This document shows, piece after piece, positions 5,569 to 29,459 of a stretch of DNA of 29,459 nucleotides; the first letter of the stretch is position 1; each line of letters begins with the position of its first letter. The notes below the pieces were generated by a model, which saw only the letters and a list, made by a program, of their open reading frames with translations, did no database searches and was not told the DNA's origin. The DNA is from a virus. The translations under genes were made by a program, and so were the position numbers. The stretch lies in the UHGV virus genome UHGV-0320987; one strand, given 5' to 3'.

Positions 5569-5583
5569 TTACCTTTCAGGTAA
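5569..5583. promoter_or_regulatory. Operator-like palindrome TTACCTTTCAGGTAA (copy 1)
   Basis: Perfect TTACC-N5-GGTAA inverted repeat in the divergent tailspike / Ant-C-paralogue intergenic region; identical to the copy at 25214. Confidence 0.6.
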
Positions 5584-6688: not shown

Positions 6689-6703
6689 TTACCTTAAAGG
6701 TAA
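6689..6703. promoter_or_regulatory. Operator-like palindrome TTACCTTAAAGGTAA (copy 2)
   Basis: Part of a perfect 17-bp palindrome ATTACCTTAAAGGTAAT, 21 bp upstream of the zinc-ribbon gene start codon, i.e. over its core promoter. Confidence 0.6.
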
Positions 6704-6781: not shown

Positions 6782-6796
6782 TTACCTTTTCGGTAA
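6782..6796. promoter_or_regulatory. Operator-like palindrome TTACCTTTTCGGTAA (copy 3)
   Basis: Perfect TTACC-N5-GGTAA in the zinc-ribbon / ant divergent region, 79 bp from copy 2. Confidence 0.55.
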
Positions 6797-7934: not shown

Positions 7935-7949
7935 TTACCCTAATGGTAA
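7935..7949. promoter_or_regulatory. Operator-like palindrome TTACCCTAATGGTAA (copy 4)
   Basis: Perfect TTACC-N5-GGTAA 41 bp upstream of the 211-aa gene start; a degenerate copy TTACCTTACGGGTGA lies at 7834-7848. Confidence 0.55.
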
Positions 7950-25852: not shown

Positions 25853-26701
25853 ATGAAAAACTTTAAGGTAATTAGTATGTTCGAATCGTTCAAAGAGCTG
25901 TTTTTATCTACTGCCAACACTGCCGTGCATCGAGCTAAAAACCCTGTGCTTGGTGCTTTTGTTATGTCCTGGTGCGCCTTCAACTGGAAATCACTTCTTT
26001 ATCTATTTTTTAGCAAATCAAATATAATAGATAAAATTTCATATATCTCAGATAACAGCACATGGAAAACTGTTATGTTTTATCCATGCTTATCTGTAAT
26101 TACTATCTGCTGCCTATTACCATGGGTAAACAATATCATTAACGTATGGCAAGCAAAGCCTCTTGATAATAATGACTCAATCGAAAATCACCGGAAGGCA
26201 AGAAAAATACAACGTGAAACACGGCTACAGAGATTGCTGGCTAAAAAAGACATTACTTACGAAAAAGTAAAAACAGGCGCTGAAAAAAACATTCAAGATA
26301 TGAAAGAGGAAATAATTCTTTCAAAAGACAGAATGGGACAACTCACATCTGAATTGAAAGAGAGGGAGACAGAACTGCGCGCAGCACAAGCTCGTATTTT
26401 AGAATTATCTAAGGTTATTGATGAAACAACATCTAAACTAGAAAATCTAGAAAAAGCTCACAAACAATTAAAAGACGAATATAAGTCTTATAAAGAAAGT
26501 ATTCATTTGACAACAAACAACTCAATTGCAAATAGACTTGCTGATCCAAAGATAGTACAAATGATTAACGAGTCTGCAAAAAATTTAGGCATTGCTAAAA
26601 TTAACAACCCAGAAATCAGTACATTATTGAATAATCCACTAGCAAATATAAATGGCGGTTTAAATCCCGCCAATCAAAGAAAATCAAAATCACAAAAGTA
26701 A
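25853..26701 (+). CDS. Membrane-anchored coiled-coil protein of unknown function (cargo gene between terminase and portal)
   Basis: 282 aa from ATG 25853 (the ORF-track start at 25688 would run through two terminators); two hydrophobic segments near the N-terminus, then a long heptad-like K/E/L-rich coiled coil and an N/P-rich tail; markedly AT-rich; opposite strand to all flanking phage genes; uses AGA/AGG Arg codons. Confidence 0.7.
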   Translation: MKNFKVISMFESFKELFLSTANTAVHRAKNPVLGAFVMSWCAFNWKSLLYLFFSKSNIIDKISYISDNSTWKTVMFYPCLSVITICCLLPWVNNIINVWQAKPLDNNDSIENHRKARKIQRETRLQRLLAKKDITYEKVKTGAEKNIQDMKEEIILSKDRMGQLTSELKERETELRAAQARILELSKVIDETTSKLENLEKAHKQLKDEYKSYKESIHLTTNNSIANRLADPKIVQMINESAKNLGIAKINNPEISTLLNNPLANINGGLNPANQRKSKSQK

Positions 26702-28180: not shown

Positions 28181-28773
28181 TGATTACCATCCTGACGTTC
28201 TTTGAGTCGCTTCCTGGCTGCTGCTATGCGATCAGCAATTGTCACATTCACATTAACATCCAGACGTTCTTTGAACGCGTTGACATCAACATGCTTACCA
28301 ATCAGCTCAAGGTTCTTCACCTTGTCAGGCCATTTAATTTTTTTGAGGATTGTCTCTATCGAATCCTCGTTCATGTTCATGATGGTCGATGACAGATCAA
28401 AGCCACTAAGCGTAGTGCGCCAGATTTTCGGCCACTCACGGATTGGTTTAAGGCTCCCATCGTCGTTGAGGATGTCGATCACGTCCATCTGGTCGATCTC
28501 CACCAGGCGCATGAGAACGTAATCAGCACTGACGCGCATTCGTTTGTTGCGCTCCTCCATCAACTCGGCAATCCGTTTTTGAATGCGTTCATCGCGCATC
28601 ATGACACTGGCTTTAACTGCCGCTGTATTTGGGGAGAATCCTGCGTTAATCGCTGCCTGAGTCTGGTTTTCAGGCGTTTTGATGTATGACTGGCAATAAG
28701 CCTCCTGCATTGCTGTTAGTGGCTTAAATTGCGTTGATTTGCGTTTATAGGTTTTAGGTTCAGCAGGCATCAT
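28177..28773 (-). CDS. Terminase small subunit
   Basis: About 198 aa from ATG 28773 (MMPAEPKTYKRK...); immediately upstream of and overlapping the large subunit gene. The ORF-track start (TTG at 28851) would translate through the operator palindrome. Confidence 0.65.
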   Translation of the reverse strand: MMPAEPKTYKRKSTQFKPLTAMQEAYCQSYIKTPENQTQAAINAGFSPNTAAVKASVMMRDERIQKRIAELMEERNKRMRVSADYVLMRLVEIDQMDVIDILNDDGSLKPIREWPKIWRTTLSGFDLSSTIMNMNEDSIETILKKIKWPDKVKNLELIGKHVDVNAFKERLDVNVNVTIADRIAAARKRLKERQDGNQ

Positions 28774-28790
28774 AACCACCGTGGTAATAG

Positions 28791-28805
28791 TTACCGTTGT
28801 GGTAA
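28791..28805. promoter_or_regulatory. Operator-like palindrome TTACCGTTGTGGTAA (copy 7) upstream of the terminase operon
   Basis: Perfect TTACC-N5-GGTAA 18 bp upstream of the small terminase ATG, flanked by a near-half-site (TAACCACCGTGGTAA, 28773-28787). Confidence 0.55.
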
Positions 28806-28891
28806 TAGTACCATGCAAAATAAAGCCGCCATAGTTGGCGGCAGTATTCAAAACCCATCAAATTCATCATGCATAATCTACTCGTGACATG

Positions 28892-29233
28892 TCACACTAT
28901 TAATTTCGTTTCATGCCAGCCTTTAGTCACCCAGCATTGCGAGTCACCATTACACGGGCATGAATTAACTGGAACTCTCTCGCCGCACTTACCGCAACAT
29001 TTTCTGCTGATCGATTTTATACGCCCGCGCACGCGTGCATCATCCTGGCGGATCAGTAACGCTATATACTCACCAAATTCGTAAGGCGCACGCCCGGGGC
29101 GACGCGTGGCACAGTTACGCTCCAGCATTTCAATTTCCTGAGCATCAAGCACAATTTCCAGCTTACGCACACCAGATGCAGCTTGTCTGGCTCTCTGAGC
29201 GGCTTTGCGCTCTGCTGCTGATTTAGCCATCAA
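28892..29233 (-). CDS. Small basic Cys-rich protein (possible zinc-binding regulator) preceding the terminase operon
   Basis: 113 aa; basic helical N-terminus (AERKAAQRARQAASGVRK) and C-terminal cluster CCGKCGERVPVNSCPCNGDSQC; 11-nt overlap with the upstream gene. Confidence 0.5.
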   Translation of the reverse strand: MMAKSAAERKAAQRARQAASGVRKLEIVLDAQEIEMLERNCATRRPGRAPYEFGEYIALLIRQDDARVRGRIKSISRKCCGKCGERVPVNSCPCNGDSQCWVTKGWHETKLIV

Positions 29234-29459
29234 TATTCACCTTTATCGCGAACACCTTTACCGGTTTATCGCCGAAGTGCGGATGTGTGATTGTCTTGAT
29301 TTCATATCCGTCATACGGAACATCAATTCTACGGCTGGAATCGTCGCGCTTCGGATATCCCTTTGTGATAATCAGGCGGTCATACTCCCGGAACATAATT
29401 CGCTTATTCCAGTAGTCATTACACAAGCGATACTCTTCCGTTTTCTCTCCGCGAATCAT
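29223..29459 (-). CDS. ASCH-domain-like protein, probably 5'-truncated by the window edge
   Basis: Contains the ASCH signature G.KT.E.R (GEKTEEYR) at residues 4-11, which normally lies 15-20 aa into the domain; the ORF reaches the last base of the window. Confidence 0.45.
   Translation of the reverse strand: MIRGEKTEEYRLCNDYWNKRIMFREYDRLIITKGYPKRDDSSRRIDVPYDGYEIKTITHPHFGDKPVKVFAIKVNIDG

Follow-up and report, generated by a model that had tools for sequence, protein, structure and literature searches.

A predicted ribbon-helix-helix and zinc-ribbon regulator of epsilon15/phiV10-like phages, with a probable DNA site over its own stop codon: a candidate Q-like late switch

The window considered here is the whole 29,459-nucleotide (nt) stretch of the virus genome UHGV-0320987, to which all coordinates refer, and the gene in question is a small minus-strand reading frame ahead of the terminase genes, the product of which, a member of phrog_536, is called the regulator below. 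In the region of this gene the window is 99% identical to Escherichia phage vB_EcoP_PAS61, its identity to phiV10 is about 99%, and by sequence the window phage is a Uetakevirus (an epsilon15/phiV10-like temperate podophage) in reverse orientation. The first-pass annotation of this DNA had placed there an open reading frame (ORF) of 113 amino acids (aa) at 28892..29233, which, read on the minus strand, starts at a TTG codon. The ORF is borne out, its start and length are not: because every homologue begins with MAKS or MAKT, the true start is the ATG at 29230, which follows the Shine-Dalgarno sequence AAGGTG at a distance of 8 nt and gives a protein of 112 aa.

This protein corresponds to phiV10 gp55 and epsilon15 gp49, its residues 20-112 being 97.8% identical to those of phiV10 gp55, which the phiV10 record labels 'transcriptional regulator'. 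The phrog_536 profile, which carries the same label, is matched with an E-value of 1.7e-54 (residues 1-111 against profile positions 2-114 of 115), and a distant homologue in Vibrio phage K308 is also assigned to phrog_536 (E 3.4e-37). Homologues matching at E<=1e-3 form 726 clusters at the 90% identity level, and at the 50% level the family is covered by 182 representatives; it comprises hundreds of prophage clusters in Enterobacterales together with members from Vibrio, Aeromonas, Serratia and Pseudoalteromonas, and every named host belongs to the Enterobacterales, Vibrionales, Aeromonadales or Alteromonadales. The codon differences between the window gene and its copy in phage Tyrion are 35 synonymous and 23 non-synonymous, and the ORF is a real, conserved gene. 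Pfam and NCBIfam gave no family above threshold for the window regulator (noise only: DUF4457, YbfE E 0.05), and the sole match of a phmmer search of the PDB, antileukoproteinase, was judged to be due to chance. Pfam scans of the longer 'fusion' members of the family yielded no informative added domain; one of them contains terminase fragments and was taken as a frameshifted assembly. The gene, the predicted parts of its product and the palindrome that covers its stop codon are located as follows.

28892..29230, minus strand: regulator coding sequence, 112 aa, predicted ribbon-helix-helix (RHH) plus zinc ribbon, phrog_536 (ORF list, PHROGs match, homologue starts)
29174..29218, minus strand: predicted N-terminal basic helix AERKAAQRARQAASG, codons 5-19 (AlphaFold2 helix; conservation of R8 and R13)
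29009..29167, minus strand: predicted RHH core, codons 22-74, with strand RKLEIVL, helix 30-42 and long helix 52-74 (AlphaFold2 model)
28910..28999, minus strand: putative Cys4 zinc-ribbon region, codons 78-107, weakly TraR/DksA-like (conserved cysteines; profile comparisons)
28884..28895, no strand assigned: perfect 12-bp palindrome GTGACATGTCAC, probable cognate site, including the TGA stop at 28892-28894 (motif scan, cross-lineage comparison)

The basic N-terminal helix (AERKAAQRARQ) and the Cys-rich C-terminal cluster CCGKCGERVPVNSCPCNGDSQC, from which the first-pass annotation had argued, are both present in the translated ORF. Conservation was judged on an alignment of 56 diverse family members, in which C79 and C82 are invariant, C99 is nearly invariant and C91, read by eye from the displayed alignment, is aligned across the family; C78 and C93, which form part of the same cluster, are lineage-specific and are not kept family-wide. 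Since C79, C82, C91 and C99 are conserved throughout the family, the likely zinc site is C79-x2-C82 ... C91 ... C99. Apart from the cysteines, the near-invariant residues are R8 and R13 in the basic helix, E54, L59, P87 and G95, and the consensus includes the motif PY...EY..LIR. With a shallow alignment of close homologues AlphaFold2 produced an unusable model (pLDDT, the predicted local distance difference test, of 64), and with the 56-sequence alignment a model of pLDDT 93, made of a helix (residues 5-19), an extended segment, a second helix (30-42), a long helix (52-74), a loop-rich Cys region and a short helix (100-107). This model presents the elements of an RHH-type fold in their order, an N-terminal β-strand and then two helices, and structure comparison matches it with RHH DNA binders. 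None of the curated RHH sequence models scored above threshold, RHH_5, RHH_1 and RepB-RCR_reg appearing weakly in one or two of the 56 members, and Foldseek against BFVD returned only a fragment of the same family. On the strength of the model the RHH fold is confidently predicted, and DNA binding by the regulator, which would be sequence-specific, is well supported; the RHH domain would be expected to dimerise. For the C-terminal part, the best matches of the family profile among all PDB sequences are TraR (E 0.064) and YbiI (E 0.074), and hhalign against TraR gives a probability of 65% over 58 columns; the arrangement C79-x2-C82-x8-C91-x7-C99 departs from the C-x2-C-x17-C-x2-C motif of the DksA/TraR class. 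The earlier proposal of a zinc-binding, DNA-binding regulator at the early/late junction is thus strengthened by the four conserved cysteines, by the phrog_536 label and by the gene position, the late-gene role remaining only plausible.

The palindrome GTGACATGTCAC has no other copy in the window at up to one mismatch. Among the L-numbered loci and contigs and the named phages with which the window was compared, an element of the form GTGAC-N2-GTCAC also covers the stop codon of the homologue in Tyrion, in phiV10 (with one mismatch), in N15 (gp46, GTGACTGGTCAC), in Klebsiella phage Kpn74, in a Yersinia P2-like phage (GTGACGCGTCAC) and in Vibrio phage 10N.237. This overlap is seen in six representatives from at least four phage types, with proteins ~30-40% identical to the window protein, and the stop-codon palindrome is retained in 49 of 49 N15-like IMG/VR loci. 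The VPHZ6 copy begins 2 nt beyond the regulator stop, and that of the K308-like phages and L088 lies about 200-235 nt downstream of the regulator gene. When all perfect 5-Nx-5 palindromes between -500 and +3000 of the gene were counted, without bias, in 15 lineage representatives, the GTGAC-N2 palindrome was retrieved in 12 of them; the next entries are its own sub-strings (at most 5 lineages), and the best unrelated palindrome occurs in 4. The remaining three lineages have copies with one mismatch in the counted interval or an exact copy farther off. Complete genomes contain one to three exact copies of GTGAC-N2-GTCAC, against 0.00-0.03 expected.

The half-sites of this palindrome are invariant, its centre is variable, and its flanks cannot be aligned between lineages. 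Because no more than 4 of its 12 bases belong to the coding sequence, its flanks defy alignment and the proteins are ~30-40% identical to the window protein, its conservation points to selection on the DNA element itself. A coding constraint was rejected, 8 of the 12 bases lying outside the ORF, and an RNA hairpin or translational operator is unlikely in view of the invariant half-sites with a varying centre and of the 5-bp stem with a 2-nt loop, which cannot form. That the regulator, and not another factor, binds GTGAC-N2-GTCAC is in our judgement probable: recognition of double-stranded DNA by a conserved dimer would fit the invariant half-sites, the variable centre and the conserved N-terminal residues. 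The distance between tandem palindromes is 23 bp in L005 and L006 and about 33 bp in the Yersinia phage, or about two and three helical turns, a spacing compatible with cooperative binding as for other RHH proteins.

Further copies are found away from the regulator gene. Perfect GTGACATGTCAC elements occur at 2262 and 19493 in phiV10 (L003) and at 2702 and 20377 in Tyrion (L095), at the ends of the terminase and structural operons and beside terminators; these extra copies, which the window phage does not have, lie within 0-10 nt of a stop codon and 0-5 nt of a terminator. Of 80 related contigs, 50 contain a second copy; those listed abut the terL terminator, with variable convergent morons beyond. 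N15 has three copies: at the gp46 stop, upstream of the promoter/terminator region of genes 32-30, which we take to be an anti-repressor region controlled by premature termination, and inside repA. The second of these (N15 28550-28561, minus strand) comes ~50 nt after gene 33 and is followed by a promoter-like TTGACG-N18-TAGAGT, the annotated terminator ahead of genes 32-30 being about 115 nt from the palindrome. Within repA, at a distance of about 620 nt from the start of the gene in N15 and L089, GTGACTGGTCAC is perfectly kept (N15 33237 = L091 1735; L089 92; L138 6939), and the adjacent synonymous positions have diverged.

In the window and in phiV10 the regulator gene closes the early-right operon, in which it is preceded by a cro-like gene, the replication genes, ead/eae-type genes and an ASCH gene, and the genes for the small and large terminase subunits (terS and terL) come directly after it. 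Its position immediately upstream of terS and of a TTACC-N5-GGTAA site (28791-28805), as noted in the first-pass annotation, is confirmed. In the Uetakevirus, Vibrio and Aeromonas phages examined it is the last or near-last early gene ahead of the lysis or terminase genes; in the N15-like phages a few kb separate the homologue from the lysis genes downstream, and in the Yersinia P2-like phage the homologue comes after the replication gene A, towards the end of the early operon. On the minus strand of the window, the stop codon and palindrome are succeeded by 41 nt with a weak promoter-like site, an intrinsic terminator, two TTACC operators and terS. The promoter-like site and the terminator are the following.

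28866..28895, minus strand: weak, uncertain sigma-70-like promoter GTGACA-N18-CATGAT, with the left half of the palindrome as -35 (scan, 9 of 12 matches)
28817..28842, minus strand: intrinsic terminator GCCGCCAACTATGGCGGC + TTTATTTT in the regulator-terS interval (sequence scan; kept in related contigs, including the 70-aa-gene variants)

The phiV10 record likewise has, at its end, a 'putative rho-independent terminator' annotated at the gp55 stop. About 23 of 80 closely related IMG/VR contigs carry an inserted 70-aa gene in place of the -10, with the palindrome and the terminator retained; the promoter-like site is thus dispensable. This Cys/His-rich gene (MPKIRYDLEDMRDNS...; L079 5357-5569) sits exactly between the stop-codon palindrome and the terminator, and the palindrome therefore marks a mosaic junction.

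The terminator recurs in distant members. In K308, L088, Vibrio 10N.237 and VPHZ6 a strong intrinsic terminator is found about 150-650 nt past the palindrome (in VPHZ6, inside the annotated next ORF), and in the first three it ends 12-35 nt ahead of the first late (lysis) gene, which leaves no room for a promoter; transcription of the late genes of these phages must pass through the terminator. In L088 (GTCACA-17-TATCAT) and in 10N.237 (GTCACA-16-TAAAAT) the right half of the palindrome serves as the -35 of a promoter-like site; in K308 the only promoter-like site scanned is ~100 nt downstream of the palindrome, in VPHZ6 none was found, and in an Aeromonas phage a GTGACA-17-TATAGT match precedes the gene, with a one-mismatch palindrome just downstream of the match. 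The order of gene, site, promoter, leader, terminator and late gene is complete in L088 and 10N.237, and the window has the palindrome, the weak promoter-like site and the terminator. No Q, Ogr or RinA homologue was met in the annotations and scans examined of epsilon15/phiV10-type, Vibrio and Aeromonas temperate phages, and no Q-family PHROG was found among the nine K308 rightward early-operon proteins that were scanned.

Several neighbours of the regulator gene deserve mention. The ASCH-domain gene (phrog_625; 29223-29459, minus strand), cut by the end of the window, overlaps the regulator start by 8 nt, which suggests translational coupling. In the Vibrio and Aeromonas types the regulator is followed, with overlapping stop and start, by a gene of 97-135 aa (L088 873-1166; L004 1738-2067; L149 3321-3728), which may encode a partner protein; its product starts with MRLSHKRK in L088 and L004, the Aeromonas gene in this position belongs to phrog_17650, for which no function is annotated, and in L088 the palindrome lies inside it. 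As for terS, the ORF of 224 aa from the TTG at 28851, a length annotated in phiV10 and PAS61, spans the intrinsic terminator and both operators (window 28771-28851); in view of the Tyrion annotation and of the Shine-Dalgarno sequence GGTGG, translation probably starts at the ATG at 28770 (or at 28773), the N-terminal extension of ~27 aa being left untranslated. An HNH or packaging accessory role of the regulator was considered and rejected: it has no HNH motif, a conserved His is restricted to close homologues, the gene precedes the lysis genes and not terS in most lineages, and the N15 sites are far from cos.

The reading that we favour, although we place it somewhat short of an even chance, is that an RHH and zinc-ribbon regulator bound to the palindrome exerts a positive, Q-like control of read-through. 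A dimer of the regulator would occupy GTGAC-N2-GTCAC at the stop codon of its own gene, just upstream of the early/late terminator, and would let RNA polymerase run on into the late (terminase, head and tail) genes, the zinc ribbon being the part that contacts the polymerase. Such a switch would be of the Q type, acting by DNA-site-dependent antitermination or late activation. The reading is proposed because the succession of regulator gene, DNA site, short leader, terminator and late genes is the layout of lambdoid Q. The late-gene role is plausible on grounds of comparative anatomy; a positive effect on late transcription appears to us as probable as its contrary, and antitermination rather than promoter activation is held with lower confidence. 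In the strongest version, which is rather doubtful, phrog_536 would constitute a new and structurally distinct class of Q-like late-gene antiterminators: an RHH dimer loaded at a matS-like site in its own stop codon would reach the polymerase through a TraR-like ribbon, either when the polymerase completes the early operon or when it initiates at an overlapping promoter, and would confer resistance to the terminator ahead of the late genes; other operons governed by terminators, such as the anti-repressor operon of N15, would make use of this module too.

A series of observations weighs against this proposal. The N15-like phages possess a genuine Q (gp40), next to cro, with a late promoter devoid of the palindrome, and in the Yersinia P2-like phage the Ogr position (after gene D) is occupied by a short regulator gene; because it coexists with these, the family is not universally 'the' late regulator. 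The extra palindromes of phiV10 and Tyrion stand at operon ends by convergent morons, one of them past the terL terminator, a pattern with which an insulator or roadblock would agree at least as well. In N15, in the contigs with the 70-aa gene and ahead of K308 terS, the palindrome is 0-8 nt upstream of a Shine-Dalgarno sequence, in a transcribed region with no recognisable promoter, and the promoter-like hexamers that overlap the palindrome are inconsistent between lineages and possibly due to chance. The late operons of the Uetakevirus each have a TTACC operator and perhaps their own promoter, so that read-through may be unneeded. As to the polymerase contact, the families listed for the 56 members include neither PF01258 (zf-dskA_traR) nor any other Pfam zinc-finger model, and with its marginal E-values the TraR/DksA likeness of the ribbon is a lead and not a sign of membership. 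Finally, our literature searches found no paper on the protein family; those on the palindromes and on N15 gp46 returned nothing relevant.

The main competing explanation, which we hold to be unlikely, makes the bound dimer a roadblock, insulator or repressor at operon boundaries, where it would reinforce terminators and separate early, late and moron units; it might also limit the expression of the gene immediately downstream or of the regulator itself. Most characterised RHH proteins are repressors, and a symmetric site suits a bidirectional block. Each of the three palindromes of phiV10 and of Tyrion follows a stop codon by 0-10 nt and has an intrinsic terminator at 0-41 nt, two of them being at convergent moron junctions; the two copies of L005 and L006 lie between convergent genes, and the second copies by the terL terminator in the related contigs, with a variable moron beyond, follow the same pattern. 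However, a K308-type copy is placed 19 nt upstream of the terS start, apparently inside the late operon, where a stable block would silence the structural genes; the Vibrio-type phages need a factor to pass the pre-lysis terminator, the regulator being the only one found nearby; and the window phage manages with a single copy, so that insulation of moron junctions is dispensable.

A classical activator is also conceivable, though we rate it as distinctly improbable. Here the palindrome would overlap the -35 of a late promoter (GTGACA/GTCACA) and the dimer would recruit RNA polymerase in the manner of Ogr, RinA or a class II activator, the terminator being passed by other means or being leaky. 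The use of a palindrome half as -35 in the window (GTGACA-18-CATGAT), L088 and Vibrio 10N.237 would accord with it, as would the promoter-like match of the Aeromonas phage, and the gene is found just upstream of terS, as is that of RinA in staphylococcal phages (PMC3152322). Yet chance alone should give ~0.2-0.3 such matches per palindrome, by a rough estimate that admits either half, either orientation and three spacers; neither the 70-aa-gene variant nor N15 has the -10, the sole promoter-like site of K308 is away from the palindrome, and the terminator would still have to be passed.

To an organising function we assign only a small probability: the protein would bridge the two or three palindromes of a phage genome in a MatP-like fashion, or serve replication or partition, or be directed to matS-like sites or, as TraR, to the RNA polymerase of the host. 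The named hosts all fall in four orders that make up about the clade possessing MatP, the palindrome is conserved inside repA of the N15-like phages, and there are only one to three sites per genome. In addition, the half-sites are identical to those of matS, GTGAC[AG]N[TC]GTCAC, which is bound by the RHH protein MatP (PMC3116907, PMC3603311). Against this, the profile comparison with MatP is not significant, the regulator is devoid of the four-helix bundle and coiled coil of MatP, the family-linked sites invariably have a spacing of 2, never of 3, with one GTGAC-N3-GTCAC, in K308 only, among six sequences checked, and the steady position at the early/late junction next to a terminator points to transcription. 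That true matS-spaced element of K308 (L147, 19491) stands beside three N2-spaced sites.

A last set of sites concerns the TTACC-N5-GGTAA motif, which the first-pass annotation had tentatively offered as the target of the regulator.

5569-5583, 6689-6703, 6782-6796, 7935-7949, 25214-25228 and 28791-28805, no strand assigned: exact copies of TTACC-N5-GGTAA (motif scan)
28791..28805, no strand assigned: TTACC-ACAAC-GGTAA operator, attributed to the CI-like repressor or Cro (motif scan, phiV10/Tyrion distribution)

The six exact copies, against 0.04 expected, are all intergenic, and a second copy near terS, with one mismatch (28773-28787), overlaps its ribosome-binding site and start. In the complete genomes of phiV10 and Tyrion the motif is found between the CI-like repressor and the cro-like gene and in an OL-like region, and also past the terminators ahead of almost all operons, whether early or late; all Uetakevirus examined have the same operator. 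Because the same motif fills the repressor/cro intergenic and OL-like regions, it is best explained as the operator of the prophage immunity repressor and Cro, and one repressor appears to control every transcription unit directly. That the regulator would be a late regulator acting through these sites (e.g. TTACCACAACGGTAA) ahead of the terminase genes is highly improbable and the claim was not borne out: the gene is indeed 87 nt upstream of such a site, and the motif is real and also precedes other late operons, but it has the distribution of a repressor/cro-type operator, N15, Vibrio phage K308 and the Yersinia P2-like phage all encode family members and are devoid of it, its 15 bp with half-site centres 10 bp apart suit a helix-turn-helix dimer such as the CI-like repressor (homologue of phiV10 gp40), and the DNA-facing N-terminal residues of the family are conserved across lineages, as is the GTGAC palindrome. 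Elsewhere in the window, a promoter-like TTGACA-N16/17 under a TTACC operator (25192-25228) is aimed at a plus-strand ORF of 337 aa (25688-26701), which lies between the portal and terL genes, has no Pfam match and looks like a repressor-controlled moron on the strand opposite to the late genes.

In the literature and annotations examined, no late-gene switch is described for epsilon15/phiV10-type phages, which are used in the detection and typing of O157, or for many temperate phages of Vibrio and Aeromonas. A widespread family and a precisely defined candidate DNA site make the question of a late switch directly testable. If the favoured reading of a DNA-site-loaded RHH antiterminator is true, the regulator would represent a new structural solution for regulation of the Q/AlpA type and a compact orthogonal switch of 112 aa and a 12-bp site; if it is only a local repressor or insulator, it would be an RHH regulator of the ordinary kind, unusual only for where its operator lies. 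That the half-sites of the palindrome are those of matS raises a further question: did the phages borrow from the host MatP system, or do they avoid cross-talk with it?

Among known systems, lambdoid Q (lambda, 21, 82) and Pseudomonas AlpA share with the regulator a gene at the end of the early operon, a presumed site directly downstream and a terminator followed by the late genes; lambda Q is moreover small and has a zinc-binding element. Unlike Q, the regulator has no Q Pfam or PHROG match and is predicted to adopt the RHH fold and not that of Q, its site overlaps its own stop codon and is not always beside a promoter, its family coexists with a genuine Q in the N15-like phages, and no sigma-dependent pause element was identified for it. 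With the RHH regulators (P22 Arc and Mnt, CopG, AmrZ, TacA, ParD, MetJ) it has in common a predicted strand-helix-helix core, an N-terminal basic arm and a short palindromic target, with tandem copies two to three helical turns apart in some phages. It differs from them by the addition of a putative C-terminal Cys4 zinc ribbon, found in none of those named, by an operator at the 3' end of the gene and not at a promoter, and by reaching threshold with no Pfam RHH model. No description of an RHH protein that combines a zinc ribbon with an operator at the 3' end of the encoding gene was found in the literature searched.

MatP is likewise an RHH DNA binder with identical half-sites GTGAC/GTCAC, and its hosts belong to overlapping bacterial orders. 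Removal of one central base from the E. coli consensus matS, GTGACATTGTCAC (PMC8669397), gives the Uetakevirus site, the spacer of which is 2 bp and not 3. The regulator, of 112 aa with a putative zinc ribbon and neither four-helix bundle nor coiled coil, is phage-encoded with one to three sites per phage genome, and hhalign against E. coli MatP, with an approximate MatP sequence, gives a probability of 0.2%. TraR and DksA, C4 zinc-finger proteins that bind the secondary channel of RNA polymerase, also present a long helix and then C-x2-C-G-x2-[LI]-P ... G ... C; in the regulator, however, the fourth Cys is at C91, there is no second CxxC, and the helix belongs to the RHH core. With RinA, ArpU and LtrC of Gram-positive phages the likeness is that of a gene directly upstream of terS, as for RinA, and with Ogr that of a small zinc-binding phage regulator. 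The RinA/ArpU/LtrC and Ogr/Delta/B (P2, P4, 186) proteins are unrelated to the regulator in sequence and fold, and the Yersinia P2-like phage has both a family member and a short gene in the Ogr position. By analogy with these systems, the regulator would work most like a late switch of the Q/AlpA or RinA type, yet from outside those families.

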